A stretch of DNA of 64,000 nt from a virus (IMGVR_UViG_3300026290_000001); one strand, 5' to 3'; shown: positions 174 to 35,688, numbered from the stretch's first letter. The notes: a model not told the origin generated them from the letters alone. Program-made: numbers and translations.

Positions 174-1475
174 ATATTAGAAGTAATTTATAAAACAGAA
201 AAAGGTAGACTTGTTCATGGTGATAATATTGAAGCAATGAGAAAAATTAAAGAAAATTCAGTTGATAGTTGTATATCAGATTTTCCTTATGATTTATCAT
301 TTATGGGTAAGAAATGGGATACTACAGGAAATTTTTATGAGTGGTGTAAAGATCGAGCAGAACCATTATATAGAATAATTAAGCCGGGAGGTTATGTTTG
401 TATCTTTGGGCATCCTAAAACTAATCACAGAATGAAGTCAGCTTTTGAAGATGTAGGGTTTAATATAGTTGAAGAAATTGATTGGGTTTATGGAACTGGT
501 TTTCCTAAGAATCAAGATATAGGAAAATTGTTTGATAAGAAAGCAGGAGCAGAAAGAGAAATTGTTGGATATTTAGATAGAAATGATAGAAAATTACCTA
601 GTGGCGAAGGTGGTACTCATGGTACGGCACATCAAGATTATTGTAATAATGGTAGAGAAACTATAAATTTATCAATTACTGCACCAGCTACAAATCAAGC
701 AAAGAAATGGGATGGATGGAAAACATCAGGATTAAAACCAGCACATGAACCAATTACTGTATTTCAAAAACCATTGGAAGGTACTTATATAAATAATATA
801 AATACATATGGTGTTGGTGGAATGAATATTAATGCTTGTAGGATAGAACATAATGAACCTATTAAAACAACAAATAGAAAACCAAGAAGTGCTACATGGA
901 ATATGGACACTTGTGGATTTGATAGCACAAACAATACTGTTGCTAGTGCTGATCCAAATGGCAGATTCCCTGCTAATATGATATTTGATTCTTCTATGGG
1001 AGAAGTATTAGATAATCAGAGTGGAATTAGTAAGTCAACGGGTGGAAGTGGAGATAAGAGCAAAGGTGCTTTAGGGGATAGTGTTTATGGAAAATATAAA
1101 AATGAAGAATTATCAGCTAATGCAGGAGGATTAGGAGATTCAAGTGGTGCTAGTAGATATTTCTTAAAGATAGATGCAGAAGATTTTGTACCATTTTTAT
1201 ATTGTCCTAAAGCATCTAAAAAAGAAAAAGGCGAAGGGAATACTCATGTAACTGTTAAACCTAAAGAATTAATAAAATGGCTCATTAAATTAGTTACACC
1301 TATAAATGGAAAAACAATTGATATTACTGCTGGTTCTGGTACACATGGTTTGGCTTGTGAAGAACTTAATAAGAATGAAGGTTATAATCTAAGATGGATT
1401 GATATTGAATTATTAAATACAGAGAAAGAACCTTATTGTGAAATTGCAATGAATAGAATTAAAAATGTAATATAA
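174..1475 (+). CDS. DNA methyltransferase, beta-class amino-MTase (N6A/N4C), motif IV variant DFPY; probable ATA start
   Basis: Track ORF 237..1475; motif IV-like SVDSCISDFPYD near N-terminus, motif I-like DITAGSGT near C-terminus; N-terminal homology (ILEVIYK…GDNIEAM) runs upstream of ATG 237 to in-frame ATA 174, 10 nt after AAAGGAG. Confidence 0.7.
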   Translation: MLEVIYKTEKGRLVHGDNIEAMRKIKENSVDSCISDFPYDLSFMGKKWDTTGNFYEWCKDRAEPLYRIIKPGGYVCIFGHPKTNHRMKSAFEDVGFNIVEEIDWVYGTGFPKNQDIGKLFDKKAGAEREIVGYLDRNDRKLPSGEGGTHGTAHQDYCNNGRETINLSITAPATNQAKKWDGWKTSGLKPAHEPITVFQKPLEGTYINNINTYGVGGMNINACRIEHNEPIKTTNRKPRSATWNMDTCGFDSTNNTVASADPNGRFPANMIFDSSMGEVLDNQSGISKSTGGSGDKSKGALGDSVYGKYKNEELSANAGGLGDSSGASRYFLKIDAEDFVPFLYCPKASKKEKGEGNTHVTVKPKELIKWLIKLVTPINGKTIDITAGSGTHGLACEELNKNEGYNLRWIDIELLNTEKEPYCEIAMNRIKNVI

Positions 1476-1606
1476 AAATATACAGAAAAATACAAATATA
1501 CATACTATATATAGTGGCATTAAGCAATTCATACCACAATATATAGAAAAATATTTGAATAAAATTCGGGTTTTGTCACAAAATTATTAAATAGAAAGGA
1601 GAATAT

Positions 1607-1867
1607 ATGAAAAAAATAAAATATTACTGTGACAAATGTAATAAAGAAATCCAAAAGGAAGATATTATTAAAAAAGAAATACCTACTATAGATAAAATTG
1701 AAGCAAGAGGTGGTAAGGGTAATCCTACCCCTGTATTATTAGTATTTGAAAACTTAGTTATGGATGAATATGAGTTATGCAAAAATTGTGCAGATTCATA
1801 TGAAATATTACATAATTATTTCTTAACTTTACTTGCAAAACAATGGTCTAAAGTAAATACCAAATAA
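1607..1867 (+). CDS. small zinc-ribbon protein (hypothetical)
   Basis: RBS AAAGGAG then ATG; two CxxC pairs (CDKC…CKNC). Confidence 0.5.
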   Translation: MKKIKYYCDKCNKEIQKEDIIKKEIPTIDKIEARGGKGNPTPVLLVFENLVMDEYELCKNCADSYEILHNYFLTLLAKQWSKVNTK

Positions 1868-1905
1868 TGCTTTCATAAAAACTAAAAAATAAGGAGAATA
1901 AATAT

Positions 1906-2340
1906 ATGAAAACTTTACTATTAATCTTAGGAATTATAATTCTAATTTCAAAGAAAAAGGCTATTCCAAATATTTTTAAATCTAAAGAAGTTAAGAGAAA
2001 AATGGCAGAAAAAATGTTTGATGAATTACCAGATAAGGCAAAGGAGTTACATATTGATCTTACCACATTAAAAGGCTTGTTAATTATATTTTTAGGTCTA
2101 TTTTGCTTGTTGTATATAATTTTTTATTTATTATCAGCAATATTTATTAATACCTTCGTATTCACTGTAATATCAATTCTATTAATGTTTCTTACAGTTA
2201 AAACTTTAAGTAATTTTCTAAAAGGTTTTGATAATACCGGAAATATAAAAGTAGAAAGTGTTGCATTTAGTATATTTAATATTATTGTTGATTTAGGATA
2301 CATAGGATATGTGTTTTTCAATATATATAAGATGTGGTAA
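1906..2340 (+). CDS. hypothetical membrane protein
   Basis: RBS AAGGAG; several strongly hydrophobic segments. Confidence 0.45.
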   Translation: MKTLLLILGIIILISKKKAIPNIFKSKEVKRKMAEKMFDELPDKAKELHIDLTTLKGLLIIFLGLFCLLYIIFYLLSAIFINTFVFTVISILLMFLTVKTLSNFLKGFDNTGNIKVESVAFSIFNIIVDLGYIGYVFFNIYKMW

Positions 2341-2387
2341 AACATCATAGAATAACGGTTTGGTGCAAAGTGAGGTGAAATTATTAA

Positions 2388-2552
2388 ATGACTTTTGGAT
2401 TTACTTATTTTATCTCTAAAAGGGATAAAAGCGCAGAAAGAATAATTAATATTGAAGCAGAGTCGGAAGAACAGGCATTTGATAAATACATAAAGTTTTT
2501 AAGTGAGCATCATATGGTTATGGGTGAATCACTTGGAGAAAAGTTAAAATAA
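2388..2552 (+). CDS. small hypothetical protein (54 aa), absent from the ORF track
   Basis: ATG 2388 after GTGAGGTGA RBS-like sequence; fills the gap between flanking genes. Confidence 0.3.
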   Translation: MTFGFTYFISKRDKSAERIINIEAESEEQAFDKYIKFLSEHHMVMGESLGEKLK

Positions 2553-2607
2553 AAACAACACAAAAAATCAATTTGGTTCAAACTTTTACAAAAAACACAA
2601 TATAAAA

Positions 2608-3378
2608 ATGAAAGGAGAATTAGTATATAAGTTGCAATTATACTATAAAGATGAATACATAAGATTATTTCAAGGTGATTGTTTAGAAGTAATGGATAGG
2701 TTAATTGAGAAAGGTGTTAAATTTGATGCAATAATTACTGATCCTCCTTACGGGACTACAGCTTGTAAATGGGATAGTATCATACCATTTGATAGTATGT
2801 GGGAAAGATTAAATAAGTTAATAAAGGATAATAGTGCAATAGTTTTATTTGGTAGTGAACCATTTAGTAGTCATTTAAGAGTAAGTAATATTAAAAATTT
2901 TAAATATGATTGGATATGGAATAAAAAGAAGGGAGGAAGTCCTTTACTTTCTAAAATACAACCAATAAAAATATTTGAAATTATATCTGTTTTTGGGAAA
3001 GGGAAAATAAATTATTATCCAGTAATGGTTGATAGAGATAAACCTAAATCAAGGGGTAAGAATAGAGGAACTATTAGTGATACAACAAATAATTGTTTTT
3101 CAGAAGATAAGATTTATACGCAATATTATCCTAAAGCAATTATAGAATTTTCAAATGCTAGTCAAAAAAATAAATTTCACCCAACTCAAAAACCAGTGGA
3201 GCTAATGGAATATCTTATTAACACATATACACAAGAGAATGAAATTATATTAGATTTTACTTGCGGTTCTGGTACAACATTATTAGCATCAAGAAATCTT
3301 AAAAGAAAATGTATCGGTATTGAATTGGAAGAAAAATATTGTGAAATAACTAAACAAAGATTAGAAAAAGCAAGTTAA
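2608..3378 (+). CDS. DNA methyltransferase, beta-class (DPPY)
   Basis: Motif IV AIITDPPYG, motif I DFTCGSGTT, TQKP motif; ATG 2608 overlaps the AAAGGAGAA RBS, so in-frame TTG 2632 may be the true start. Confidence 0.8.
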   Translation: MKGELVYKLQLYYKDEYIRLFQGDCLEVMDRLIEKGVKFDAIITDPPYGTTACKWDSIIPFDSMWERLNKLIKDNSAIVLFGSEPFSSHLRVSNIKNFKYDWIWNKKKGGSPLLSKIQPIKIFEIISVFGKGKINYYPVMVDRDKPKSRGKNRGTISDTTNNCFSEDKIYTQYYPKAIIEFSNASQKNKFHPTQKPVELMEYLINTYTQENEIILDFTCGSGTTLLASRNLKRKCIGIELEEKYCEITKQRLEKAS

Positions 3379-3505
3379 ATATAAAAACAGCATAAAATTC
3401 TAGTTTGGTTCAAAAATAGACGCCTAAAGATTGGGATTCTTAGAGTATGGATTTTTCAAAATAATTATTAAAATAAAAATATAAATATTGGAGGTAAATA
3501 TATAA

Positions 3506-4345
3506 TTGATAGAATTAAATAATTTTTATATAGGGGAATCTGTTAATTTTATGCGTAAAAATATTCCTGATAATTTTGTAGATTTAACAGTTACAAGTCC
3601 ACCTTATGATGATTTAAGAAAATATAATGGATTTATTTTTGATTATGAAACAATTTTTAAAGAACTTTTTAGAATAACTAAAAATGGTGGAATTGTTGTA
3701 TGGATAATAGGAGATAAGACAGAAAAAGGAACGGAAAGTCTAACAAGTTTTAAACATGCTTTAAGTGCTAAAAATATAGGATTTAATGTTCATGATACAA
3801 TGATATGGTTAAAACCTAATCCAACACCAACTGATCCTAAATGTTTAAGATATTATAATGCTTTTGAATACATGTTCGTTTTTTCTAAAGGAAAACCAAA
3901 AACATGTAATTATATAAAAGAAAAATCTAAAAATACAGGTAAAGAATTTGGTTCAGCTCCAATGAAAAGAGTAGATGGAACTAACAGAGATGACAGAACT
4001 GAAAAGTTAAAGGGTATAAAAATAAAAGACTATAAAATTAAAAGTAATGTATGGGAATGTGCTATAGGTTCAGGGGTATCTAAAGATAAAATTGCTTTTA
4101 AACATCCAGCAATTTTCCCTGAAAAATTAGTTGAAGATCACATAATTTCTTGGACTAATAAAAATGATATTGTACTAGACCCTATGTGTGGTTCGGGTAC
4201 AACGTGCAAAATGGCATGGTTAAACAAGCGTAATTTTATTGGAATTGATATGAGTGAAGAATACATAAATAACATTTGTATACCAAGATTAAATACATAT
4301 GGTTGGGAACAGAATAAAGAAAACGTATTTCAAGATTGCCTATAA
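3506..4345 (+). CDS. DNA methyltransferase, SPPY type (N4-cytosine-like or N6-adenine)
   Basis: TTG start 9 nt after GGAGG; TVTSPPYDDLRKYNG and DPMCGSGTT; paralog of 8521..9323. Confidence 0.8.
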   Translation: MIELNNFYIGESVNFMRKNIPDNFVDLTVTSPPYDDLRKYNGFIFDYETIFKELFRITKNGGIVVWIIGDKTEKGTESLTSFKHALSAKNIGFNVHDTMIWLKPNPTPTDPKCLRYYNAFEYMFVFSKGKPKTCNYIKEKSKNTGKEFGSAPMKRVDGTNRDDRTEKLKGIKIKDYKIKSNVWECAIGSGVSKDKIAFKHPAIFPEKLVEDHIISWTNKNDIVLDPMCGSGTTCKMAWLNKRNFIGIDMSEEYINNICIPRLNTYGWEQNKENVFQDCL

Positions 4346-4419
4346 ATTGGGCTTTATAATCTATAAAATCATTACCAAATTTGAGTTTGGTTCAAAGTTA
4401 TAGAAAGGAGAAATTATAA

Positions 4420-5256
4420 ATTATCAATACATATTATAAAAATAAATATGCAAGGATATATCAATGTGACAATTTAGAATTATTAAAACAATTACCAAAT
4501 GAATACATAGATTTAATTTATTGTGATATTTTATACAACACTGGTAAGAAATTTAAGGATTATGATGATCAATTAGGCACAACACAAGAAGCAATTAAAT
4601 GGTATAAACCAAGATTAATAGAAATGAAAAGAGTATTAAAGGAAACAGGATCAATTTATTTACATATGGATTTTAGATTAATACATTATTTAAAAGTAAA
4701 AATGGATGAAATATTTCAATTAAATAATTTTAGAAATGAGATTATATGGGATAAAGGATTTAGGGGTACGGAGCAAAAAGAGTTTTATCAACATTCGCAT
4801 GATTCAATATTATTTTATACAAAAACTAATAACTACATATGGAATAAAGTTTTTTGTGAATATGCTGATAAAAATATGAGTAGGTATAATAAAACTGATG
4901 AAGATGGAAATAAATATGCTTTAATTAAAAGAAAAAGAACAGACGGAAGTGTTTATTATGGCAAAACATATCCACAATCAGAAGGAAAGAAAGCAGACGA
5001 TGTATTTAGAGATATAAAAACTTTTTCATCAACAGCTAAAGAAAGAATTGGTTATGATACTCAAAAACCAAAGGCATTATTAGAACGTATTATTAAAGCA
5101 TCTTCTAATGAAGGAGATATAGTAGCAGACTTCTTTATGGGATCAGGCACTACTGGCGAAGTGGCATTAGAATTAGGTCGTAAATTTATTGGTTGTGATA
5201 TTGGGGAAAGGGCATGTGAGATTACTAAAAATAGATTAGATAAAATTATAATATAA
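4420..5256 (+). CDS. DNA methyltransferase homolog with degenerate motif IV (DILY); start uncertain (ATT 4420) or pseudogene
   Basis: Track ORF 4624..5256 has TQKP and DFFMGSGTT; upstream in-frame sequence ([31 protein letters not shown]) is clearly MTase N-terminus; no ATG/GTG/TTG between TAA 4417-4419 and 4624; ATT 4420 lies 9 nt after AAAGGAG. Confidence 0.55.
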
Positions 5257-5308
5257 AAACATGACAAAAACTATGTTTTATTTAGATTTTAAAAGAAAGG
5301 AGAAACAT

Positions 5309-5614
5309 ATGAAATTTATTAAAGATATTTCTAATATTATAATATTGCAAAATGATCATTGTAAATTTGAAATCAGAAGTGTACAAGGATTTAATGAAGA
5401 TGAAAATAAAATAATCTTAAAATGTGCCGAAGATATATCAGAGTTTAAAAAAGGTTATGTTTGTGATATGGAATGTCATTTTCCATTAGTTGAAAATGAT
5501 GGAGTTGAAGTTGGTGAAAGAATTGATACGATTCGAGACTTGGTATTGGTTTATATCAATAAAGATATTCAAATGGAATATGCCCCTAGTTTTGAATATG
5601 TATTTTATAAATAA
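5309..5614 (+). CDS. hypothetical protein
   Basis: Track ORF 5261..5614; ATG 5309 preceded by AAAGGAGAA is the likelier start. Confidence 0.5.
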   Translation: MKFIKDISNIIILQNDHCKFEIRSVQGFNEDENKIILKCAEDISEFKKGYVCDMECHFPLVENDGVEVGERIDTIRDLVLVYINKDIQMEYAPSFEYVFYK

Positions 5615-5659
5615 TAAAACAAAATTTCGATTTTATAACGATTTTAAAAGGAGGATATT

Positions 5660-5890
5660 ATGTTTAAAAAAATTAAAGTTAGAGAATTTTTAGAAGAAGT
5701 TTGCGGAGCAAAAGTTGATTGGATTTCTGGTAATGTAATTAAAGTAAATGAACATTATATTTATTTAGATAAAAAGAAATTTATTTTAAATTATGATTGG
5801 CATTTTTATGGAACAAAAAGAGATATATTAAAAACACTAAAAGAATATGGGTTTGTGATTAAAAAGAAATTACAGTTAAATTATTATTAG
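5660..5890 (+). CDS. hypothetical protein
   Basis: RBS AAAGGAGG then ATG. Confidence 0.5.
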   Translation: MFKKIKVREFLEEVCGAKVDWISGNVIKVNEHYIYLDKKKFILNYDWHFYGTKRDILKTLKEYGFVIKKKLQLNYY

Positions 5891-5906
5891 AAACGAAAGG
5901 AGAAAT

Positions 5907-6047
5907 ATGCATACTGAACTAACAGAGGATCAACTTAAACTAATAAAAAAGTATGGGGAAATTAATCCACCACATCATACTATTGAAGAAATTGAAGAAG
6001 CATTGAAAAAATCATCTGAAATTAAAATAAAATTACAAGAAAAATAA
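5907..6047 (+). CDS. small hypothetical protein (46 aa), absent from the ORF track
   Basis: AAAGGAGAAAT then ATG 5907, stop TAA 6045-6047. Confidence 0.3.
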   Translation: MHTELTEDQLKLIKKYGEINPPHHTIEEIEEALKKSSEIKIKLQEK

Positions 6048-6165
6048 ATATCGTGATAAAATCTCTATTTGGTGCAGAAATGGATGGCTATATATTGGGA
6101 TTTGTGGGGCTATAAATTTTGAAAATAAAAACAAAAAATAAAGATAGGAGGTAAATATATAAAAT

Positions 6166-7158
6166 TTGCTTGAATTGAATAAAATATATAATGAAGATTG
6201 TATAATCGGCATGAAAAAATTATTAAAAGATGGTTACAAAAATACTTTTGATTTTATAGAAATTGATCCACCTTATAATATAGGCAAAGATAAATGGGAT
6301 AAATTTAAAAACCATCAAACATATTTAAATTTTATTAATGAAGTTATAAGTTTATCTAATGAATTAATGAGCGATAATGGAACCTTATTTTTATGGCATA
6401 ATAATATCGAGGTGTTATCAGATTTTATTAAATTAATTAATACTACAGATTTAAAATTAATGCAATTATGTATATGGAATAAATATTATAAATATAATGA
6501 TGACGGTAATTTGAATAATCAATACGGATTTTTAAATGGATTTATTCAAAGTGATTTAAATAGGAATTATCAAAAAATGTGCGAATATATTTTATATTAC
6601 ACTAAACAAAACGAAGAATTAACTGAATATAATGAAAAAGACCCATTTAAATCACTAAAGGAATATTTTTTTAATGCCCAAAAATCTTCTGGTTTATCAA
6701 GAAATAAAATTAATCAAATATTGGGGCATAGACAATCTGAGCATACTTTTTATACTAAAACTCAATGGACTTTTCCAACAGAAGAAACATATTTAGAATT
6801 ACAAAATATAATGAATCTACCTATCCCTTATAATGATTTAAAAAATACATATGAAACAATGAGATATACATATAATTCAGAGAAAAACAATTATCGAAGT
6901 TGTATTTGGAATTACCCGATAAGTAAAGAATCAAAACACAAGACAGAGAAACCGTTACAATTGTATTATGATTTATATGAAATACATACAAAAAATAATA
7001 GTAAATGTTTATTCCCGTTTGTGGGTAGTGGTAATAATATTTTAAGTTTATTTAAAATAAATAATTTTGATGGAGGGAAACGAGAGTTTGTAGGTTTTGA
7101 AACTGACAAAACATGGTTTACTTATATAAATGAAAAAATAGATTTAAGAATCCCGTAA
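6166..7158 (+). CDS. DNA methyltransferase, beta-class (DPPY)
   Basis: TTG start after AGGAGG; FIEIDPPYNIGKDKWD and FPFVGSGNN. Confidence 0.8.
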   Translation: MLELNKIYNEDCIIGMKKLLKDGYKNTFDFIEIDPPYNIGKDKWDKFKNHQTYLNFINEVISLSNELMSDNGTLFLWHNNIEVLSDFIKLINTTDLKLMQLCIWNKYYKYNDDGNLNNQYGFLNGFIQSDLNRNYQKMCEYILYYTKQNEELTEYNEKDPFKSLKEYFFNAQKSSGLSRNKINQILGHRQSEHTFYTKTQWTFPTEETYLELQNIMNLPIPYNDLKNTYETMRYTYNSEKNNYRSCIWNYPISKESKHKTEKPLQLYYDLYEIHTKNNSKCLFPFVGSGNNILSLFKINNFDGGKREFVGFETDKTWFTYINEKIDLRIP

Positions 7159-7211
7159 TATTGGGATTCTTAAACCCAAAAATCAACACCAAACTTCGGT
7201 TTGGTTCAAAG
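7149..7211 (+). promoter_or_regulatory. copy of the repeated intergenic module (GC-stem hairpin, AAAATCA…AAAC box, TTTGGTTCAAA box)
   Basis: ATCCCGTAATATTGGGAT hairpin overlapping the upstream stop, then AAAAATCAACACCAAAC, then TTTGGTTCAAA ~10 nt before the RBS. Confidence 0.35.
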
Positions 7212-7232
7212 TTATAGGAAGGAGAAAATAAT

Positions 7233-7427
7233 ATGTTTGATTGTAGATTCGCTAAAAGTATTCTATTGGATAAAAATGAAGATGATACTTATCATATGAC
7301 AATAAAAGGAGATATTTATAATCTTGATCCTGAAGCGGAAATTGATTTTTCTAGAGTGAAAATTATTAATTTTGATATTGAGGCATTAGCAACAACTGGG
7401 ACAATATGTAAAATAAAAATAATATAA
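7233..7427 (+). CDS. hypothetical protein
   Basis: GGAAGGAGAA RBS then ATG. Confidence 0.4.
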   Translation: MFDCRFAKSILLDKNEDDTYHMTIKGDIYNLDPEAEIDFSRVKIINFDIEALATTGTICKIKII

Positions 7428-7521
7428 AATTTTTGTTTGGTTAAGAAATTTATAATTATTATAGGGATTGATTTTACCATAATTTTAATATATAATAAAA
7501 ATAAAAACGGAGGTTTTATAT

Positions 7522-7692
7522 ATGGCGATTAAATTAGAATGTGATAAAATCATTCCAAAGTGTAGTGATTGTAAATATAATAAGGATTATTCTTCTTGGC
7601 AACATAAAATTCCTTGTGGAAAACAATTCTGTGTATATGGTTGTAATGTATGTAAAAATCCATGTGATGCAAAGGAGAATATGTCTTGGTAA
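7522..7692 (+). CDS. small cysteine-rich protein (56 aa, 10 Cys), absent from the ORF track
   Basis: RBS ACGGAGG then ATG 7522; stop 7690-7692. Confidence 0.35.
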   Translation: MAIKLECDKIIPKCSDCKYNKDYSSWQHKIPCGKQFCVYGCNVCKNPCDAKENMSW

Positions 7693-7720
7693 AAATTAAT
7701 ATTAATAAAGGAGTTATAGT

Positions 7721-8461
7721 TTGTATAAATCGCCTCTTAGATATCCAGGAGGTAAAAGCAGGGCGATAAAAATAATTATCGAGTATTTTCCGAAAAGTAT
7801 AAAAGTTATGAGTTCTCATTTTGTAGGAGGAGGATCAATTGAACTTTATTTATCTGAAAATAATAAAATAATTGCGTATGATAATTTCGATCTGCTTATT
7901 AACTTTTGGAATCAATTAAAATATAAAAATAAAAATTTACATAATACAATATTAAAATATTACCCGTTAACAAAAGAACAATTTTTAGATATACAAAAAA
8001 ATATTTATAATTCAGATGATGAAGTTGAAATGGCCGCTAAATTTTATGTTTTAAATAGATGTAGTTTTTCAGGTAGTACATTAAGCGGTGGAATGTCACT
8101 AAATCATCCAAGATTTAATATTAATTTAATACATAAACTTCAGGAAGTAAATTTAAAAAATATTGAGTTTATTTGTATGGATTTCAAAGAATCAATATTA
8201 TTACATCAAAATAATTTTAAGTATTTAGACCCACCCTATTATATTGAAAATAATTTATATGGAGTAAAAGGAGGGTTACATAAAAATTTCGATCATATTG
8301 GTTTGAATGGTATTTTAAAACAATCATCTAATTGGGTATTAAGTTACAATGATTGTGAATACATAAGAAAACTTTATGAAGGATGCAAAATAATACAAGT
8401 TGATTGGAAATACGGAATGAGTAAAGATAAAAAATCTAATGAAATTCTTATAATAAATTAG
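7721..8461 (+). CDS. Dam-like N6-adenine DNA methyltransferase (D12 class)
   Basis: TTG start after AAAGGAG; N-terminal LRYPGGKSR and later FKYLDPPYY, the Dam-family motif order. Confidence 0.8.
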   Translation: MYKSPLRYPGGKSRAIKIIIEYFPKSIKVMSSHFVGGGSIELYLSENNKIIAYDNFDLLINFWNQLKYKNKNLHNTILKYYPLTKEQFLDIQKNIYNSDDEVEMAAKFYVLNRCSFSGSTLSGGMSLNHPRFNINLIHKLQEVNLKNIEFICMDFKESILLHQNNFKYLDPPYYIENNLYGVKGGLHKNFDHIGLNGILKQSSNWVLSYNDCEYIRKLYEGCKIIQVDWKYGMSKDKKSNEILIIN

Positions 8462-8520
8462 TAATATAAAAACAATATAAATATTTGGTTTGGTCATGAA
8501 ATATGAAAGGAGATTATATT

Positions 8521-9323
8521 TGATAGAATTAAATAATTTTTACATAGGCGAGTCTGTTAATTTTATGCGTTACAATATTCCAGACAACTACATTGATTTA
8601 ACTATTACTTCACCACCTTATGATGATTTAAGAAAATATAATGGATTTATATTTGATTATCAAAGTATGTTTAAGGAATTATATAGAGTTACTAAAGACG
8701 GTGGAATTGTAGTTTGGGTAGTAGGAGATAAAACTGAAAATGGTAGTGAAACATTAACAAGTTTTAAACATGCTTTATATGCTAAAGAAATCGGTTTTAA
8801 TGTTCACGATACACAAATTTATTATAAGAATAATCCTATACCAACAACAGGCAATAGATATCATCAACACTTTGAATATATGTTCGTATTTAGCAAGAAT
8901 AAACCAAGGGTATTTAATCCAATCAAGGAAGATTGTAAATATAGTGGTTTGGCTAATATGAAAAATAGAGGCAAGGATGGTTCATTAAATTATACTAAAA
9001 TTGAAAGAACTAAAGATAAAAAGGTAGGTAATGTTTTCTTTTATTCTATTGGAGGGGGTATTACTACTAAAGATAAAATTGCTTATAGTCATCCTGCGTT
9101 GTTTCCAGATAAATTAGCCGAAGATCAAATAATAACTTGGAGCAATAAAGAAGATATTATTTTTGACCCAATGTGCGGTAGTGGTACTACTTGTAAAATG
9201 GCATGGTTAAATAAAAGAAATTTTATTGGAATTGATATAAGTGAAGAATATATAAATGATATTTGTATACCTAGACTAAATATATATGGTTGGCAACAAA
9301 AGCAAAATATAAAAATATCATAA
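8521..9323 (+). CDS. DNA methyltransferase, SPPY type; paralog of 3506..4345
   Basis: Track ORF 8490..9323; the ATG lies upstream of the AAAGGAGA RBS, so TTG 8521 is the probable start; TITSPPYDDLRKYNG, DPMCGSGTTCKMAWLNKRNFIGID. Confidence 0.8.
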
Positions 9324-9428
9324 AATAAAAATCCCAATTTCTAGGGATTTACAAAACTCAAAAACATGATCAAAACTTCGTTTTGTTACATCAATAAAAC
9401 AATAAAATAAATTAAGGAGGGAAATAAA

Positions 9429-9884
9429 ATAGCGGATTTTGATAACAATAGATTTGCTTCAAAAAATCAAGAGTACGCAACACCTTGGGAATTATTTAAT
9501 AAGATAAATGAAGAATTTAATTTTACCTTAGATGTGTGTGCAGATGAAAATAATCATAAAGTTGATACATATTTTACGGAAGAACAAAATGCTCTTATCC
9601 AAAATTGGAAAGGAGTATGTTGGATGAATCCACCTTATAAGGATATGAAAAAATGGGTTATAAAAGCATACGAAGAATCAGTTAAAAATGATAGTATTGT
9701 GGTTTGTTTAATTCCAGCAAGAACTAATACCAAATGGTGGCATGAGTATTGCATGAAAGGTGAAATAAGATTTATTAAAGGTAGACCAAAATTTGAAGGA
9801 TGTATTCATGGTTTACCACAACCATTAGCAATTGTTGTTTTTGGAAAAGAATATAAAAATACATATGGTTCATTAGCAATTTAG
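9429..9884 (+). CDS. phage-type N6-adenine DNA methyltransferase (NPPY); probable ATA start
   Basis: Track ORF 9534..9884 (GTG) carries VCWMNPPYK; upstream in-frame ADFDNNRFASKNQEYATPWELFNKINEEFNFTLDVCAD is the family N-terminus; frame opens at 9411; ATA 9429 is 8 nt after AAGGAGG. Confidence 0.7.
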   Translation: MADFDNNRFASKNQEYATPWELFNKINEEFNFTLDVCADENNHKVDTYFTEEQNALIQNWKGVCWMNPPYKDMKKWVIKAYEESVKNDSIVVCLIPARTNTKWWHEYCMKGEIRFIKGRPKFEGCIHGLPQPLAIVVFGKEYKNTYGSLAI

Positions 9885-9910
9885 TAAAAATATCAAGCAA
9901 ACAATGATAT

Positions 9911-9955
9911 ATAGGCATTTTCAACTTATCACAAATGCCTATATATTGGGCTTTT
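9911..9955 (+). terminator. perfect 10-bp stem hairpin followed by a short T-run, candidate intrinsic terminator
   Basis: ATAGGCATTT (9911-9920), 12-nt loop, AAATGCCTAT (9933-9942), then ATATTGGGCTTTTAC. Confidence 0.35.
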
Positions 9956-10014
9956 ACAAAAATCATTACCAAAATATCATTTTATATTAATTAGAAAGGA
10001 GAAACAAAATATAA

Positions 10015-10584
10015 TTGAGTAAAAAATATAACATTATATATGCTGACCCACCTTGGAAACCTACTGAGAGTGGTACAGGAGTTAGAGGTACGGCAGATTT
10101 AAAAAAACGATATCAAGGTGTAATGAGTATAGAAGAAATATGTGCTTTACCAGTAAAAGATATATGTGAAGATACATGCATACTGTTTTTATGGGTTACA
10201 TTTCCAAGATTACAAGAAGGAATGAAAACTATTGAAGCGTGGGGATTTCAATATTATGGGTTGGGATTTGATTGGATTAAAACTAATCTTAAAAGTGGAA
10301 CTCCATTTTGGGGAATGGGTTATTATACTAGACAAAATTCAGAAATATGCTTAATAGGAGTAAAAAAGGATAAAAATAAAAGAATTAAACCACAAGTTAA
10401 AAATATTTTATCTGTAGTTCATTCACCAAGAAGAGAACATAGTCAAAAACCTGATGAAATAAGAGATTACATAGTTAAAATTTGTGGTGATTTACCTAGA
10501 ATAGAATTATTTGCTAGACAAAAAGTTGAAGGTTGGGACGCATGGGGCAATGAAATTGAAAATGATATTATATTAAATACATAA
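10015..10584 (+). CDS. MT-A70 family N6-adenine DNA methyltransferase (DPPW)
   Basis: TTG start after AAAGGAGAA; IIYADPPWKP motif and family-typical downstream blocks. Confidence 0.75.
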   Translation: MSKKYNIIYADPPWKPTESGTGVRGTADLKKRYQGVMSIEEICALPVKDICEDTCILFLWVTFPRLQEGMKTIEAWGFQYYGLGFDWIKTNLKSGTPFWGMGYYTRQNSEICLIGVKKDKNKRIKPQVKNILSVVHSPRREHSQKPDEIRDYIVKICGDLPRIELFARQKVEGWDAWGNEIENDIILNT

Positions 10585-10667
10585 AATAAAAATTATCATA
10601 AAAGTCTGAATTGGTTTAGAGTTAATAAAAATGAAAAATAAAAATAGGGAGGTATCTAATACATAAA

Positions 10668-11438
10668 TTGATTGAATTGAATACTATTTATAATGAAGAT
10701 TGTATTAACTTTATGAAGAAACTACCTAATGAATCTATTGATTTAATAATTGCCGATCCACCTTATTTTGAAATATGCGGAGAGTTTGATTTTATATGGA
10801 AATCATTAGATGACTATTTAAATTGGTCTAAAGAATGGATTTTACAATGTTATAATATTTTAAAACCATCAGGCAGTATTTATATATGGGGTAAAATTGG
10901 ATTTGGTAAGGGGTATTCTTTATTTAAAATTGCAGATTGGATAGAGAATGAAAAACTGTTTATTATAAAAAATTGGATTACTCAACGTAATACAAGAGGG
11001 AGAGGAACAAAGAAAGGGTATATAGAGGCAAGAGAAGAACTTCTGTTTTGCGTAAAGTCTAATCAATGTACTTGGAATATTGCTTATACCGAAGAAAAAT
11101 CTAATAGAAAAGATTTAGGATTTGATGGCAAACCTAGAAAAAATGAGTTTAAAAGATGCTCTGATGTATGGATTGATATAGCTGAAGCAAGTCAATCAAG
11201 TAATGAAAGATTTAAAACATTTAATGGTAAAACTTTTCCAACAGTTAAAGCACAAAAATTATGTAATAGAATTATTTTGGCAAGTTCTAATGAAAATGAT
11301 TTAGTTTATATTCCCTTTGCTGGTTCTGGAAGTGAAATTGAATCTTGTATAAAAAATAAAAGAAATTGGATTGCGACAGAAATTAATAATCAATACATAA
11401 ATGAAATCATTGAACCTAGAATTAAACGTATAATATAA
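10668..11438 (+). CDS. DNA methyltransferase, beta-class (DPPY)
   Basis: TTG start after GGGAGG; LIIADPPYFE and IPFAGSGSE. Confidence 0.8.
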   Translation: MIELNTIYNEDCINFMKKLPNESIDLIIADPPYFEICGEFDFIWKSLDDYLNWSKEWILQCYNILKPSGSIYIWGKIGFGKGYSLFKIADWIENEKLFIIKNWITQRNTRGRGTKKGYIEAREELLFCVKSNQCTWNIAYTEEKSNRKDLGFDGKPRKNEFKRCSDVWIDIAEASQSSNERFKTFNGKTFPTVKAQKLCNRIILASSNENDLVYIPFAGSGSEIESCIKNKRNWIATEINNQYINEIIEPRIKRII

Positions 11439-11665
11439 AAAATAAAAATCATGATAAAATAAGTGTTTTATCATAATATTGCAGAAATCAGTATTTTGGT
11501 AGGTTATCAACAAATACACACAACAAAGCCCTAAATGGTGGGAATGAAAAGGTATTTTAAGTGGATTAACTCTACCAAAGTAAAAAATATTTGAACCAAA
11601 TGCGTCTTTTATTCAAAGTTTATTAAAAACATAAAATAAATATAAAGAAAAGAGGATTATATATA

Positions 11666-12370
11666 TTGAAACATATTTTAAGTTTTAGTGGCGGCAAAGA
11701 TTCAACCGCAATGTTACTCATAATGTTAGAGAGAGAATATCCAATAGATGAAATTATATTTTGCGATACTGGTAAAGAATTTCCTGCTTTATATAGACAT
11801 ATTGATAAAGTTGAAGAATACATAAACCAACCTATAACTAGGCTTAAAGGAGAAAAAACTTTTGATTATTGGATGTTCGAACATGAAAAAACCAAAGGTA
11901 AACATTTAGGTAAAAAGGGTTATGGTTGGGCAGACACCAGAGCAAGATGGTGTACAGCATATTTTAAGCGTGAAATTATGAATAAATACATAAAAGAAAA
12001 ATATAATAATGAATATAAAGAGTATGTAGGTATTGCTTATGATGAGTTTAAAAGATATGAGAAAACACAAAATGGTCATAAAAAATATCCTTTAATTGAA
12101 TGGAAAATAACTGAAGGTATGGCTCTAAAATATTGCTATGATAAAGGATTTGATTGGGAAGGAGTATACACACATTTTGAACGGGTATCTTGCTGGTGCT
12201 GCCCTTTAAAAAATCAGAGAGAATTATATATGCTTTATTCTTTCTATCCTGAATTATGGGCAGAACTCAAAGATATGGATAGTAGAGCATGGAACCAGTT
12301 TAAAAGAGATTACAGTGTTCAGGATTTAGAAGATAAATTTAGGGGATGGCAAGACATAATAAAAATATAA
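11666..12370 (+). CDS. PAPS reductase family protein (PP-loop, with C-terminal CC cluster)
   Basis: TTG start after AAGAGGA; PP-loop SFSGGKDS; C-terminal SCWCCP. Confidence 0.7.
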   Translation: MKHILSFSGGKDSTAMLLIMLEREYPIDEIIFCDTGKEFPALYRHIDKVEEYINQPITRLKGEKTFDYWMFEHEKTKGKHLGKKGYGWADTRARWCTAYFKREIMNKYIKEKYNNEYKEYVGIAYDEFKRYEKTQNGHKKYPLIEWKITEGMALKYCYDKGFDWEGVYTHFERVSCWCCPLKNQRELYMLYSFYPELWAELKDMDSRAWNQFKRDYSVQDLEDKFRGWQDIIKI

Positions 12371-12434
12371 ATATTTACTTTCTTTATAGTATGGTGTATA
12401 ATAAATATATCATATCTATATAGGAGGTTAAATT

Positions 12435-12644
12435 ATGAAAACATATAAAACTGAATCAGGAGAAGAATGGTTATATTTTGATGAATGGTTAGTAGAAAAC
12501 AGTTATTATAAATGGAAAAAACAATATGATATTTTAGCAAGTACGGGGACAGATGAAGAAGAAATAGATAGGATTAAAGACGATTTATTAAAACAATTCT
12601 ATGATTTTTGTGAAGAATATGGGTATGTTGGTCAGGAAGTATAA
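12435..12644 (+). CDS. hypothetical protein
   Basis: RBS TAGGAGG then ATG. Confidence 0.45.
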   Translation: MKTYKTESGEEWLYFDEWLVENSYYKWKKQYDILASTGTDEEEIDRIKDDLLKQFYDFCEEYGYVGQEV

Positions 12645-12668
12645 TTTATAATTTTTGTGTTTTACGAA

Positions 12669-12728
12669 CCCCTAAATAATGGGGTTTGTGAAACCAAAAA
12701 TCATGATAAAACTCATCTTTTGTGTTGA
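12669..12728 (+). promoter_or_regulatory. copy of the repeated intergenic module
   Basis: CCCCTAAATAATGGGG hairpin, AAAAATCATGATAAAAC, TTTTGTGTTGA. Confidence 0.35.
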
Positions 12729-12764
12729 TATTAAAATTTAAATATAAGGAGGTAATATTATTAA

Positions 12765-13517
12765 TTGTTTGAATTAAATAAAATATATTGTGTTGATTGT
12801 TTAGAAGGGATTAAAAATATAGAAAGTGGCAGTATTGATATGGTATTTTTTGATCCTCCTTTCAATTTAAACAAAGATTATGGAATTAAAATTAATGATA
12901 ATTTAATAAAAGAAAAATATTTAAACTGGCAGTATGAAATATTAAAAGAATCTATTAGAGTGCTATGTGATAATGGGGCAATAATTTATCATACTATCCC
13001 AAAATGGGCATTTAAAATAGCTAATTATCTTGATGAACAAGGAATGGTTTTTCAAAATTGGATTTGTTGGAATGAATCAGGATCAACACCTACCCCTTCA
13101 AGATTATATCCTAAACATTATCCTATTCTTTGGTTTTCTAAGAATAAACTCAAAACTTTTAATAAACAATATATTCCCATAGAAAGATGCAGAAAGTGCA
13201 ATACTACTATAAAAGATTATGGTGGCAAATTTAAAGATTTAAAAGAAATAGATGGTGAAAAAGTAACTGTTTTAAGTGATGTATGGGACGATATACATAG
13301 AATAAGACATAATAAAAATAAAAATAGAAAATCAAATGAACTTCCCGAAATTTTAATGGAAAGAATAATTAACTTATATTCTAAAGAAAATGATATAATT
13401 TTAGACCCATTTTCAGGTAGTGGGACAACATGTAAAATAGCAAAGAAACTAAATAGACAATATATTGGATTTGAAATTAATCCTGAATACATAAAAATCT
13501 CAAAAGAACGTATTTAA
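12765..13517 (+). CDS. DNA methyltransferase, beta-class (DPPF)
   Basis: TTG start after AAGGAGG; VFFDPPFNLNKDYG and DPFSGSGTT. Confidence 0.8.
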   Translation: MFELNKIYCVDCLEGIKNIESGSIDMVFFDPPFNLNKDYGIKINDNLIKEKYLNWQYEILKESIRVLCDNGAIIYHTIPKWAFKIANYLDEQGMVFQNWICWNESGSTPTPSRLYPKHYPILWFSKNKLKTFNKQYIPIERCRKCNTTIKDYGGKFKDLKEIDGEKVTVLSDVWDDIHRIRHNKNKNRKSNELPEILMERIINLYSKENDIILDPFSGSGTTCKIAKKLNRQYIGFEINPEYIKISKERI

Positions 13518-13598
13518 AACAACAAAATAATATTATTGACGTTGTTGACTTTGTTTGTGAAAATTGATATAATTAATAAAAATGTAGGAGGTATATTT

Positions 13599-13859
13599 AT
13601 GGCAGTACGCAGACAAAGGGCAACAACTAGTGCAGAAATAATGGATAAAGATATTAAAATAGTAATTAAAAAATCAAAAGTTCGCTATAGAAGTGTAGAA
13701 TCAAAATCTCATGGTTTTGTTAATGAATTTTGGATTGAAAAAATTGATGATTTATTTTTTTCAGGAGGTAAAATAAGTGAAGAAAGAATTTATCAACATT
13801 GGAAATTCAACTTTGATAAAAATAAGTGGGAGTGTATAGAAGACAAATCTAAAAATTAA
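13599..13859 (+). CDS. hypothetical protein
   Basis: Track ORF 13536..13859; ATG 13599 after TAGGAGG is the likelier start. Confidence 0.45.
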   Translation: MAVRRQRATTSAEIMDKDIKIVIKKSKVRYRSVESKSHGFVNEFWIEKIDDLFFSGGKISEERIYQHWKFNFDKNKWECIEDKSKN

Positions 13860-13878
13860 TTTAATAAGAAAAATACAA

Positions 13879-13940
13879 ATCCCATTATATCGGACTTCAT
13901 TTTTATAAAAATCATGATAAAACTTGTCTTTTGTCATGAT
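13879..13940 (+). promoter_or_regulatory. copy of the repeated intergenic module
   Basis: ATCCCATTATATCGGA, AAAAATCATGATAAAAC, TTTTGTCATGA. Confidence 0.35.
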
Positions 13941-13972
13941 ATTAAAACAAAAATAAATATGGAGGTTAAAAT

Positions 13973-15394
13973 ATAATTAAATTAAATAAGTTTGCATTAG
14001 TACAATTAACTCCAAAAGATATGCGAAGCCAAGATAGTATAAATTTAGGATTAGAAATTATATCTGAAATAGTTAAAAAACAAGGTTGGCAATTAGATAC
14101 ATATAAATTCGGAGATAAAATTCAAGATGTTAATTCATATGATATTATAGGGTTTAGTTTATTCTATTTTACACAAATGTTAAATTTAGTTCCATTCCTA
14201 AAGAGTAATAATATTAAACCATTAAGTAGTAAAAGAAACAATCAACCACTATTATTAGCTGGCGGTCAAGGTATTCAAAATCCTAAACCAATTAGTAAAT
14301 TTATTGATGTATTTTGTATGGGTGAGGGTGAGGGGGTTTTGGAATATATCTTAGAAAATTATAAAAATAAAAATATTTTATCAAACCATAAGTCTTTGTA
14401 TATACCAAATATAAATGATAATTTTATATTCAACTCAATAAAAGATGTTGATTCTAAACCTATAATTTATGGTAAAAATAGCATGATAGAATTAACGAGG
14501 GGATGTAAAAATAGATGTAAGTTTTGTCAGTATGGATGGACAAATGGTAAATATCGAGAAAAAAACATCGAACTAGTAAAACAACAAATATTAGAGGTTA
14601 AAGATAAAGGCATTAAAAATATTAACTTGTTAAGTTGTAATTTGGGTGGTTATTCTAAGATAAATGAAGTTCTTGATTTTTGTATAGAAGAAAATATTAG
14701 ATTAATGAATACCGATATGAGAATTGACGAATATAGTGAAGAAATAGCTATAAAATTAGACCTACTAAAAGTGAGAACTCTAAAAGTTGGAGTAGAAAGC
14801 TTTTCTGATCAAACACGAATTGGTATTAATAAGAATATTTCAAAAATACAATTAGATACTTTTATTGACAGAGCTTTGAAGCATAATATATCAAATTTAC
14901 ATTTTTATTTAATATACGGACTTCCAAACGAAGAAAACTATAATGAATGGTTTAATTATATGGAATACATAAAAAATAGAATAAAATCTGTTGATAGAAA
15001 TATAAGAATTGAATTTAGTATTACTAATTTTGAACCAGCAATATATACACCCTTTGAAAAAAGTCCTTTAATTAATTTCCAAGACAAGCATAAATTTATG
15101 AGAGAATATTTAATAAAACAAGAAGAATTGGGTTATATAAAACAACCCGCACAAACAAAAGATTATAAAAATAGTCATGGAAGATTAGGCAGAAAAGAAC
15201 GAAGTTATAATATTGGAATGTGGTTACTACATGGGGACGAAACTGTAGGGGATGTGTTATATGAATTAAACATTAAAGGAATAGGTAGGAGTATAAATGA
15301 AAAGATTTATAATCAAATTTATAAAATATGCCAATCAAAAACTGATGTTTATCAAATAAGAAACATTCAAGATTTAAATGAAAATATATGGTGA
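13973..15394 (+). CDS. B12-binding-domain radical SAM protein; probable ATA start
   Basis: CX3CX2C radical SAM motif (GCKNRCKFCQ); upstream GEGEG-containing B12-binding-like segment; frame opens at 13970; ATA 13973 is 7 nt after GGAGG; track ATG 14021 has no RBS. Confidence 0.7.
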   Translation: MIKLNKFALVQLTPKDMRSQDSINLGLEIISEIVKKQGWQLDTYKFGDKIQDVNSYDIIGFSLFYFTQMLNLVPFLKSNNIKPLSSKRNNQPLLLAGGQGIQNPKPISKFIDVFCMGEGEGVLEYILENYKNKNILSNHKSLYIPNINDNFIFNSIKDVDSKPIIYGKNSMIELTRGCKNRCKFCQYGWTNGKYREKNIELVKQQILEVKDKGIKNINLLSCNLGGYSKINEVLDFCIEENIRLMNTDMRIDEYSEEIAIKLDLLKVRTLKVGVESFSDQTRIGINKNISKIQLDTFIDRALKHNISNLHFYLIYGLPNEENYNEWFNYMEYIKNRIKSVDRNIRIEFSITNFEPAIYTPFEKSPLINFQDKHKFMREYLIKQEELGYIKQPAQTKDYKNSHGRLGRKERSYNIGMWLLHGDETVGDVLYELNIKGIGRSINEKIYNQIYKICQSKTDVYQIRNIQDLNENIW

Positions 15395-15402
15395 TGTCCA
15401 TG

Positions 15403-15460
15403 CCTATAAATTGGGATTCTCAACACTCAAAAACATGATAAAACTAGTTTTTGGTCATGA
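15403..15460 (+). promoter_or_regulatory. copy of the repeated intergenic module
   Basis: CCTATAAATTGGGATTC, AAAAACATGATAAAAC, TTTTGGTCATGA. Confidence 0.35.
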
Positions 15461-18136: not shown

Positions 18137-18192
18137 TTTAAATAATAAACCTTAGTAATAAAAACATTAAAAGGAGATGAATTATACATAAT

Positions 18193-18951
18193 TTGATTGA
18201 ATTGAATAAAATTTATAATGAAGATTGTATAGGTGGAAGGGGTATGTGTTTAATCCCAAATGAATCAATCGATATGATTTTATGTGATCTTCCGTATGGA
18301 ACTACGATGGCGAAATGGGATAAGATTATCAACCAAGAAGAATTGTGGACGCAGTATAGAAGGATAATTAAACCCAGAGGGGCAATTGTACTAACTTCTA
18401 GTCAGCCATTTTCAAGTGCTTTAATATATAAAAACCTAGACATTTATAGGCATTCATGGGTTTGGGAAAAGAACAATTCTGCAGATTATGCCAATGCAAA
18501 TTGTAGACCAATGAAAATACATGAGGAAGTATTGGTATTTTCATTCGCACATGATGTTGCTCCTGCTAAAGTAAAGATGATTTATAATCCACAGGGGCTA
18601 ATACCAGTTAATAAGCCCAATCGGAGAGGTAGACATAGTGAAACAACAGGTCATTTTAGAGAGAATGAGTACATACAAAAATACACAAACTATCCTACTA
18701 CAATATTGAGGTTTGCTTCAGATAAAGATAAAATTCACTCTACACAAAAACCTGTGGCGTTGTTTGAATATCTTATAGAAACATATAGTAATGAAGGTGA
18801 TTTGGTTTTAGATAATTGTATAGGCTCAGGCACAACAGCGATTGCGTGTATAAACATCAAACGTAAATTTATAGGGTTTGAAAATGACAATACATATTTT
18901 GAGTTAGCAAACAAAAGAATAGAAGAACATAAATGTAAAATAAATATTTGA
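18193..18951 (+). CDS. DNA methyltransferase, beta-class, motif IV variant DLPY
   Basis: TTG start after AAAGGAGA; MILCDLPYGTT; TQKP; DNCIGSGTT. Confidence 0.75.
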   Translation: MIELNKIYNEDCIGGRGMCLIPNESIDMILCDLPYGTTMAKWDKIINQEELWTQYRRIIKPRGAIVLTSSQPFSSALIYKNLDIYRHSWVWEKNNSADYANANCRPMKIHEEVLVFSFAHDVAPAKVKMIYNPQGLIPVNKPNRRGRHSETTGHFRENEYIQKYTNYPTTILRFASDKDKIHSTQKPVALFEYLIETYSNEGDLVLDNCIGSGTTAIACINIKRKFIGFENDNTYFELANKRIEEHKCKINI

Positions 18952-35343: not shown

Positions 35344-35688
35344 ATGAAAATTATAAACAATCCTTTTGATACTATAATTCAAGCAGTAGAAGAATTATAT
35401 CCTAATACACATGCACTTATTCAGTTTAATCCAGAATTAAGAGGCAGAGATTATGGAGAATGTGGATGCACCACCTTCCCTACTAACCCAGACGAAGAAA
35501 TATTAATAGACATATCTACTAACATCCCTTTTATTCACATGCCTGAGATTCTTGCACATGAATTAGCACATGTAGTAGTTGGCACAAATGAAGAAAATGA
35601 TCATGGTGATAAATGGCAGGAAGTGTTTGATGCTATTCATGTAAAATATGAAGAGTTAGTAGATTTTGCTGAGAAAGAATATTCGTAA
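35344..35688 (+). CDS. small HExxH metallopeptidase-like protein
   Basis: HELAH motif with downstream acidic residues. Confidence 0.4.
   Translation: MKIINNPFDTIIQAVEELYPNTHALIQFNPELRGRDYGECGCTTFPTNPDEEILIDISTNIPFIHMPEILAHELAHVVVGTNEENDHGDKWQEVFDAIHVKYEELVDFAEKEYS

Follow-up and report, generated by a model that had tools for sequence, protein, structure and literature searches.

Four genes in a 64,000-nucleotide (nt) stretch of viral DNA, IMGVR_UViG_3300026290_000001 (the window, numbered from its first letter), are probably intact, expressed genes whose translation starts at an isoleucine (Ile)-type near-cognate codon, AUA, AUU or AUC. They encode an N6/N4 DNA methyltransferase (gene A, 174–1475, 433 amino acids [aa]), a PF01555 methyltransferase (gene B, 4420–5256, 278 aa), a phage Dam-type N6-adenine methyltransferase with an NPPY motif (gene C, 9429–9884, 151 aa) and a radical SAM enzyme (gene D, 13973–15394, 473 aa); these and all features below lie on the plus strand unless marked (−). 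A sequence-only reading of the window had proposed that conserved N-terminal sequence in the four genes continues upstream of the first canonical start, and that an in-frame ATA or ATT stands behind a strong Shine–Dalgarno (SD) site. Direct reading of the sites, a stop-to-stop listing of open reading frames (ORFs), Pfam matches and orthologs bear out both statements, with ATC added to the codons and spacers of 7–12 nt. The phenomenon is wider than those four genes, extending to two firm cases upstream of the window and four possible sites within it.

Evidence for isoleucine-codon starts

The absence of ATG, GTG or TTG ahead of conserved sequence is strict for genes B and C, whose domains begin at residues 30 and 12 and whose first canonical codons are codons 69 and 36; for genes A and D it depends on conservation among orthologs of the first 21 and 16 codons. 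The Ile codon is homologous to the ortholog starts exactly in gene C and exactly in gene B (at ATC 4423), and lies 1–3 codons upstream of them in A and D. Locus L114 denotes DNA of the same phage upstream of the window, and other L numbers denote related loci or contigs. SD duplex energies were predicted against an assumed Bacillota anti-SD, which may not be the host's sequence.

Gene B matches PF01555 over residues 30–270 (E = 9e-55). Its SD, AGAAAGGAG (4402–4410; duplex −13.3 kcal/mol), was read directly and is followed by the stop codon TAA (4417–4419), which directly precedes the two candidate starts, ATT ATC (4420–4425), with spacers of 9 nt to ATT 4420 and 12 nt to ATC 4423. The first canonical start, ATG 4624, falls inside the PF01555 domain, and no SD stands before it. 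The start column of the orthologs is that of ATC 4423, not ATT 4420: it holds ATA in L003 (90% identity) and TTG in L179 (homolog P0034, with the same N-terminus). The L003 ortholog, starting at 3004, is likewise without a canonical start and reads TAA TTT CTA ATA AAT ACA, so that the window type and the L003 type, two lineages 10% apart, share the Ile-codon state. Upstream of codon 69, the comparison of gene B with L003 gives 42 identical codons, 18 synonymous changes and 7 non-synonymous ones. Motif IV of gene B (4507–4521) reads C-D-I-L-Y in place of D/N/S-P-P-Y/F; as a separate observation, CDILY is kept in nearly all of the close homologs aligned (P0024–P0034), with DPPF in the same column of P0030. 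Members of this subfamily may methylate DNA.

In gene C, positions 8–123 of the PF05869 model align with residues 12–122 (E = 3e-32). The frame opens at 9411, and its first canonical start is GTG 9534. The SD AAGGAGGG (9414–9421; read directly; −12.2 kcal/mol) is followed after 7–8 nt by ATA 9429–9431, and at exactly this codon L080 (79% identity), L081, L083 and L084 have ATG; the window opens ATA GCG GAT TTT where these four open ATG GCG/GCT GAT TTT. Relatives of at least 90% identity include 151-aa forms starting MADFDNNRF in Clostridiales metagenome-assembled genomes (MAGs; e.g., HAS90806.1), and another such relative, P0010, starts with L, which is taken as a TTG start. Against L080, the codons upstream of the first canonical start comprise 14 that are identical, 11 synonymous and 9 non-synonymous.

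Gene A has its PF01555 domain from residue 30 (E = 1.9e-22). Its frame opens at 150, after TGA 147–149, and reaches its first canonical start only at ATG 237, codon 22. Behind the SD AGAAAGGAG (155–163; read directly; −13.4 kcal/mol), the likeliest start is ATA 174–176, 10 nt after GGAG and the sole near-cognate codon between the upstream stop and the conserved N-terminus. The 21 codons preceding ATG 237 are conserved in orthologs, with synonymous changes. The ortholog start column, which corresponds to TTA 177–179 in the window, holds ATG in L126, TTG in L115 and L117, and ATA in L116 and L127; L117 reads ATA-TTG, with its ATA at the position of the window's ATA, directly before its own TTG start. 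The gene A ortholog of L127 (6001–7876, Tissierellia MAG JAQVWY010000001.1) is unusual in another respect, spanning 1876 nt versus 1299 and comprising three overlapping ORFs, a structure that points to frameshifts or to an inserted intron, intein or mobile element.

Gene D matches PF19864 and PF04055 and ends at TGA 15392–15394, which serves here as a stop. Its SD GGAGGT (13961–13966; read directly; −10.5 kcal/mol) and the stop codon TAA 13967–13969 precede the candidate starts ATA ATT (13973–13978), which lie 7 and 10 nt after GGAGG, and the first ATG is 14021, codon 17, without an SD. The ortholog in L121 (73% identity) has GGAG, 7 nt and ATT (10001), with no canonical start there; those in L129 (78%) and L130 (71%) have ATG 1–3 codons further in. 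The 16 codons upstream of ATG 14021 are conserved in all three, with synonymous changes, and the Ile-codon state is common to lineages 27% apart.

Were initiation instead to take place at the first downstream canonical codon, the four proteins would be shorter and the in-frame stretch ahead of them an untranslated leader. Public gene calls have this form: they give 412 aa for A, 210 or 196 aa for B, 116 or 86 aa for C and 457 aa for D, the values 412, 210, 116 and 457 being exactly those of such a start. Standard callers accept only ATG, GTG and TTG, and for this reason the public calls of all four genes are truncated; all members of gene B's 90%-identity cluster are truncated calls, and a collection of 15 billion proteins holds neither B nor C at full length. 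The Pfam domains of A and D stay nominally complete in the shorter forms and by themselves do not demand the codons upstream of ATG 237 and ATG 14021, and GGTGAT stands 12 nt upstream of ATG 237. However, truncation would deprive B and C of motif IV or of ~28 positions at the beginning of the model, no SD stands before 4624 or 14021, and the supposed leader is conserved as protein, with synonymous substitutions, and aligns with the N-termini of orthologs started by ATG or TTG. We consider initiation at the downstream codons very improbable. Upstream ATGs in other frames, with or without a frameshift, were also rejected as the source of initiation: the mini-ORFs at 146–166 and 13959–13976 have no SD of their own, end before or on the start, and are considered chance occurrences.

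An artefact or a recoding event is scarcely credible. A single G-to-A change separates three of the four codons from ATG, and the sequence-only reading had raised the concern of an error at these positions. The concern is answered by two metagenome assemblies: the window is the reverse complement of approximately 33.7–97.7 kb of the IMG/VR contig IMGVR_UViG_3300009671_000358 (99.6 kb), and both this contig and 3300009647_000134, from a second metagenome, show 0 mismatches to the window over all overlaps compared, the longest of 21 kb. The two contigs are identical across the start sites, those of genes A and C having also been read directly. Window-identical proteins, including the truncated calls, were found again on as many as six contigs, which come from three sources (JGI, Logan and ENA) and reach 138 kb in length. 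Nor is ATA read as methionine (Met): internal ATA codons align in homologs with Ile in 108, Val in 13, Leu in 7 and Met in none of 147 comparisons, so that no change of code is indicated. TadA recognizes a UACG motif. A-to-I editing of AUA to AUI would leave the ATT and ATC starts, which relatives also carry, beyond rescue, and the sites, judged by eye, are without the TadA motif.

Several observations weigh against starts at Ile codons, or limit how far they can be specified. Gene A has TTA (177) in the start column of its orthologs, with ATA one codon upstream, and gene D has TTA (13982) in that column, with ATA 1–3 codons upstream; the in-frame ATG 237 and ATG 14021 could each give some N-truncated protein. 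The codon used (ATA 174 or TTA 177; ATT 4420 or ATC 4423), the identity of the first residue as Met and the level of expression are points that we infer. An in-frame Ile codon with a spacer of 5–10 nt is expected by chance at approximately 21% of sites, since ATA, ATT and ATC jointly account for 11% of trinucleotides in this DNA; the Ile codon alone is therefore weak evidence, and the case is carried by the missing canonical start and by the relatives. The SDs of the Ile-codon genes, at −10.5 to −13.6 kcal/mol compared with a median of −11.6 kcal/mol for ATG genes, match the strength of ordinary sites but are not significantly stronger (p = 0.15), and thus give no sign of compensation for weak starts. 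The start efficiencies cited below were obtained in Escherichia coli and not in the phage's own Bacillota host.

Further probable and possible isoleucine-codon starts

Ahead of the window, at distances of approximately 1.4 and 4.4 kb, the same phage has two more firm cases, read via L114. One is a methylase with GGAGG, 9 nt and ATA, in which the first canonical codon falls within motif I; by eye it is gamma-class (motifs YYTPP, EPSAGAG and NPPY), and it gave no Pfam match at 1e-3. The other is a small Cys-rich, zinc-ribbon-like protein of approximately 70 aa (by eye) with AAGGAGG, 8 nt and ATT. The initiation region of gene C (9416–9434) is nearly the same as that of the gamma-class-looking methylase (L114 8460–8480), both conforming to GGAGG(G/T)AAA(A)TAAAATAGC(G/A), and the two proteins are unrelated; the methylases at 3506 and 6166 likewise have the initiation sequence GGAGGTAAATATATAA in common. 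Initiation regions seem to have been exchanged between methylase cassettes.

Four sites within the window are candidates. A PF01555 methyltransferase (10659–11438) may start at ATA 10659, 6 nt after GGGAGG, or at TTG 10668, 15 nt after it; a block conserved with its paralog starts at ATACATAA, upstream of TTG 10668, and a search for orthologs found none outside this phage. The paralogous methyltransferase (18184–18951) has the same choice between ATA 18184, 7 nt after GGAG, and TTG 18193, at 16 nt. A candidate ATC-initiated protein of 53 aa (35703–35864), with a hydrophobic C-terminal stretch that by eye resembles a membrane helix, follows a strong, intergenic SD (AAAGGAGGT, 35687–35695) with no canonical start within 16 nt; it has no comparative support. 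The evidence is weak for a 25-codon, ATA-initiated ORF after nrdG (39820–39897), which follows a strong orphan SD (AGAAAGGAGGG, 39801–39811).

Eight further candidates were found in the relatives L116, L117, L121 and L003. Those of L116, at 4910 (ATC), 9464 (ATA) and 10319 (ATA), are all methylases by motifs read by eye, and the first of them resembles, by eye, the window methyltransferase at 2632–3378. L117 has candidates without assigned function at 1645 (ATA) and 5124 (ATC), and L121 has a PD-(D/E)XK nuclease at 1203 (ATC); the remaining two, L121 10001 (ATT) and L003 3004 (ATA), are the gene D and gene B orthologs already discussed. In unrelated phage contigs, well-supported cases are D12-type methylases with an ATT start (L105 2702) and an ATC start (L004 3355), and a P-loop ATPase (IGVAVLILGESGSGKS...) with an ATT start in three contigs (L088 1571, L093 1308 and L096 1316), in each case behind AGGAGG; all of these proteins were assigned by their motifs. 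Ile-codon starts may be under-annotated in Bacillota phages generally.

Start codons and architecture of the methylase island

The distribution of start codons was assessed in a table curated for 92 genes, comprising the window and 9.8 kb upstream of it. ATG starts only 1 of the 15 methylases, compared with 57 of the 77 other genes (Fisher p = 1.3e-6), and Ile codons start 4 of the 15 versus 2 of the 77 (Fisher p = 0.006). By location, Ile-codon starts are found in 6 of 29 island genes and in none of 63 elsewhere (Fisher p = 7e-4): all six firm cases, and thus at least six genes in approximately 19 kb, lie within the DNA-modification island. The other methylases were said in the sequence-only reading to start mostly with TTG, and so they do, in 9 of the remaining 11; across all 15, ATG and GTG account for one each, TTG for nine and Ile codons for four. 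Methyltransferases with TTG starts include five of the PF01555 family (2632–3378, 3506–4345, 6166–7158, 8520–9323 and 12765–13517), a D12-class Dam methyltransferase (7721–8461, PF02086) and an MT-A70 family enzyme (10015–10584, PF05063), and a PAPS-reductase-like enzyme (11666–12370, PF01507) is also started by TTG.

This pattern is not a general trait of phage methylases. In other phages, approximately 70–85% of the homologs of gene B, gene C and the 12765 methylase start with ATG, and the homologs of the last in L174, L176 and L178 have ATG in the same column. A genome-wide property of the host is likewise not supported: between 14 and 64 kb of the window, the only Ile-codon starts are two weak candidates in small ORFs, and 819 ORFs (each of 100 codons or more) from the replication modules of 34 relatives yielded a single weak Ile-start flag. 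On these comparisons, the start bias belongs specifically to the modification island in this low-GC clade.

Several features of the island accompany these starts. The TTG-started methylases tend towards long SD spacers, of 11–16 nt. In three methylases an in-frame ATA-TAA "start-stop" lies 5–7 nt after the SD, upstream of the TTG (3500–3505, 6157–6162 and 10009–10014); such pairs may arise by chance in AT-rich DNA. Many island genes are preceded by a repeated intergenic module consisting of a small GC hairpin (CCYAxxxxxxTGGG) with a T-run, an imperfect palindrome and an SD, at approximately 9330–9400, 11445–11480, 12670–12730, 13880–13950, 15400–15460 and 43822–43853. The palindrome is AAAATCATGATAAAAC-N5-TTTTGTCATGAT or the variant TTTGAGTTTGGTTCAAA, and TTTGGTTCAAA is found at 2572, 3404, 4386, 7200, 43843 and 46411 (−). 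The 16-mer has 21 matches, where 7.6 would be expected, and copies also flank the integrase region. The module could be an operator or promoter, or a site of cassette recombination; a scan of the island for sigma-70 promoters gave fewer matches than shuffled sequence and was uninformative. Upstream of the window, at L114 ~6490–6560 (window approximately −3330 to −3270), an SD is followed by the first 11 codons of a methylase of the 3506/8520 type (TTG TTA GAA TTA AAT AAT TTT TAC ATA GGT GAA; remnant at ~6509–6553), three more codons and a stop. Immediately downstream begins another PF01555 methylase, which has a separate SD and is started by GTG or ATG. The remnant looks like the scar of a cassette replacement.

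Proposed mechanism and possible origin of the weak starts

If translation does begin at Ile codons, the SD would position the 30S subunit and the initiator fMet-tRNA would pair with the first two bases of the codon (AU), so that the protein would begin with Met. Initiation factor 3 (IF3) would discriminate against such complexes, and output might fall to a few per cent of the ATG level. Together with TTG on nearly all other methylases, often at the end of a long SD spacer, such starts would keep each of approximately 15 enzymes low. The state could be limited to these cassettes because a trace of a catalytic enzyme suffices, or because more of it is harmful. The sequence-only reading had suggested that weak starts throttle the expression of DNA-modifying enzymes; the part that stands is that Ile codons occupy start positions and that the modifying enzymes are biased towards weak starts, and throttling is an extrapolation from rates in E. 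coli.

The comparisons with orthologs indicate that the Ile-codon state arises through single-base changes of ATG or TTG starts. Such changes could also mark cassettes that are silenced or decaying, their starts lost by AT-biased mutation in the early pseudogenization of a redundant island of 15 methylases. Gene C has exchanged ATG for ATA relative to relatives of at least 90% identity, A and D carry TTA where relatives carry TTG or ATG, the genome is 27% GC, and the island shows cassette turnover, as in the methyltransferase 5′ remnant described above. Yet all ORFs and SDs are intact, the synonymous changes upstream of the canonical start of gene B greatly exceed the non-synonymous ones, independent Ile-codon starts occur in the gene A orthologs of L116 and L127, and the state persists in the diverged lineages of B and D. 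This long persistence, with intact SDs, argues against plain pseudogenization; start-loss pseudogenes were rejected on these grounds, and decay is in our judgment decidedly unlikely.

A different possibility is that the weak starts were selected as a regulon, responding to IF3 availability or to a phage-encoded modulator and switching the enzymes on at some given stage of infection, induction or host physiology, as the AUU start of E. coli infC and the GTC start of Streptomyces sigR do. The architecture of infC is likewise a strong SD followed by a weak codon; the firm cases all cluster in one island; each cassette has its own terminator-like hairpin and the common palindromic upstream element, suggesting coordinated control; and IF3-repressed non-canonical starts have a precedent (PMC5472188). 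Against this, approximately 40 window and flanking proteins scanned, a set that left out most small proteins, included no homolog of an initiation factor, and the window and its flanks contain no tRNA gene; the ten related loci have none either, and hence no phage-borne suppressor or initiator tRNA was found. Rfam families were absent from the start sites, the only match being a HEARO RNA elsewhere in the window. Genes outside the methyltransferases and the island are without such starts, and the start codon flips among ATG, TTG and ATA between relatives of at least 90% identity, which is hard to square with conserved regulation. A factor-coupled regulon is therefore rather unlikely, and the coupling to a phage or host factor offered in the sequence-only reading finds no direct support.

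The same turnover among close relatives favors tolerance or tuning over a fixed regulatory need. Selection for low enzyme might be at work, maybe avoiding toxicity or mis-methylation in the lysogen. A non-adaptive origin, in which AT-biased mutation from ATG or TTG to ATA or TTA is tolerated where a trace of enzyme suffices, fits equally well, and the sequence does not separate selection for low expression from tolerated drift, a further point that qualifies the idea of purposeful weak starts. More speculatively, start strength could be an evolvable rheostat for the methylase cassettes of this clade, approximately 100–160 kb temperate phages of anaerobic low-GC Bacillota, or the set of AUH (AUA, AUU or AUC) and TTG starts could form an IF3-sensitive translational regulon; we hold this broader proposal to be unlikely. 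Each rheostat cassette would be self-contained, combining an SD and a weak start with the terminator hairpin and the common palindrome, which resembles an operator. Were it correct, point switches among ATG, TTG and AUH would tune or park methylases to suit the restriction systems of the host; were the regulon correct, the phage would turn on the AUH/TTG set when the fidelity of host initiation drops.

Relation to known systems and significance

The codons ATT, ATC, ATA and CTG are rare alternative bacterial starts in NCBI translation table 11. The phage uses such codons at a far higher frequency, in 6 of 92 genes overall and 6 of 29 in the island. In model genomes, they are annotated now and then, next to 81.8% ATG, 13.8% GTG and 4.35% TTG; in E. 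coli, AUA, AUU and AUC initiate at approximately 1–2% of the AUG level, and confirmed non-NTG starts number only two, the AUU codons of infC and pcnB (bioRxiv 10.1101/063800). In infC (which encodes IF3) and pcnB, a near-cognate AUU stands behind a functional SD, with expression limited by IF3 discrimination, as is proposed here. Each of these is a lone gene, however, for which autoregulation (infC) or limitation (pcnB) has been demonstrated, whereas the phage set comprises at least six genes in one island, also uses AUA and AUC, has codons that turn over between close relatives and is known from sequence alone. The GTC start of Streptomyces sigR, which is repressed by IF3 (PMC5472188), is alike in being a non-canonical start that acts as a point of translational control; the codon, organism and gene class differ, and control is experimental for sigR and inferred for the phage.

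Orphan methyltransferases of phages and prophages (PF01555, PF05869, PF02086 and PF05063) belong to the same families and have the same presumed anti-restriction role, but their homologs elsewhere start with ATG in approximately 70–85% of cases, in contrast to this low-GC clade, where 14 of 15 do not. A literature search for AUH starts in phages or methylases returned nothing specific. The phage set is a dense new case of known near-cognate initiation and no new mechanism.

The consequences for annotation are direct. Truncation strips catalytic motif IV from one methylase and the N-terminal portion of the domain from another, and surveys of methyltransferases or anti-restriction functions in low-GC Bacillota phages will under-call such genes or label them defective. 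As a natural and comparatively well-supported set, starts at AUA, AUU and AUC with ATG or TTG orthologs a few per cent away also constitute a ready series for the study of near-cognate initiation and IF3 discrimination in Bacillota, and they could show whether the scarcity of DNA-modifying enzymes is something that phages maintain on purpose.

The phage and other features of the window

The DNA comes from a siphovirus-type temperate phage whose host is an anaerobe with a low GC content. Its genes lie on the plus strand up to approximately 43.7 kb and on the minus strand after that; they include an integrase, tape-measure, Dit and Tal-like tail proteins, a DnaE-type polymerase, a RecD2-like helicase, RecJ, an NAD-dependent ligase and NrdD with NrdG. 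No close cultured relative was found, the best being Clostridium phage Amboise, with 48% DnaE identity. Gene A has orthologs in MAGs that carry the labels Bacillota and Tissierellia, and gene C has a relative of at least 90% identity in a Clostridiales MAG.

Adjoining the methylase island, L114 1–1080 and 4182–5264 encode RNA ligases of the RtcB and Rnl types, a pairing that hints at a counter-defence module based on tRNA repair. Near the junction of the two oppositely oriented gene blocks, a 111-codon open frame (43399–43734, +), whose first canonical start is codon 87 and which has no SD, is by eye a possible leftover gene fragment. The HEARO RNA (Rfam RF02033, 121.7 bits) is full-length and lies among the phage tail genes (55819–56029, −), directly upstream of a 430-aa HNH-endonuclease-like ORF (54449–55741, −); we take this pair to be the arrangement of IscB plus omega-RNA. 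A LAGLIDADG homing-endonuclease-like gene (26893–27732) stands between recJ and the gene for the DnaE-type polymerase, and its final four bases overlap the polymerase ATG at 27729.

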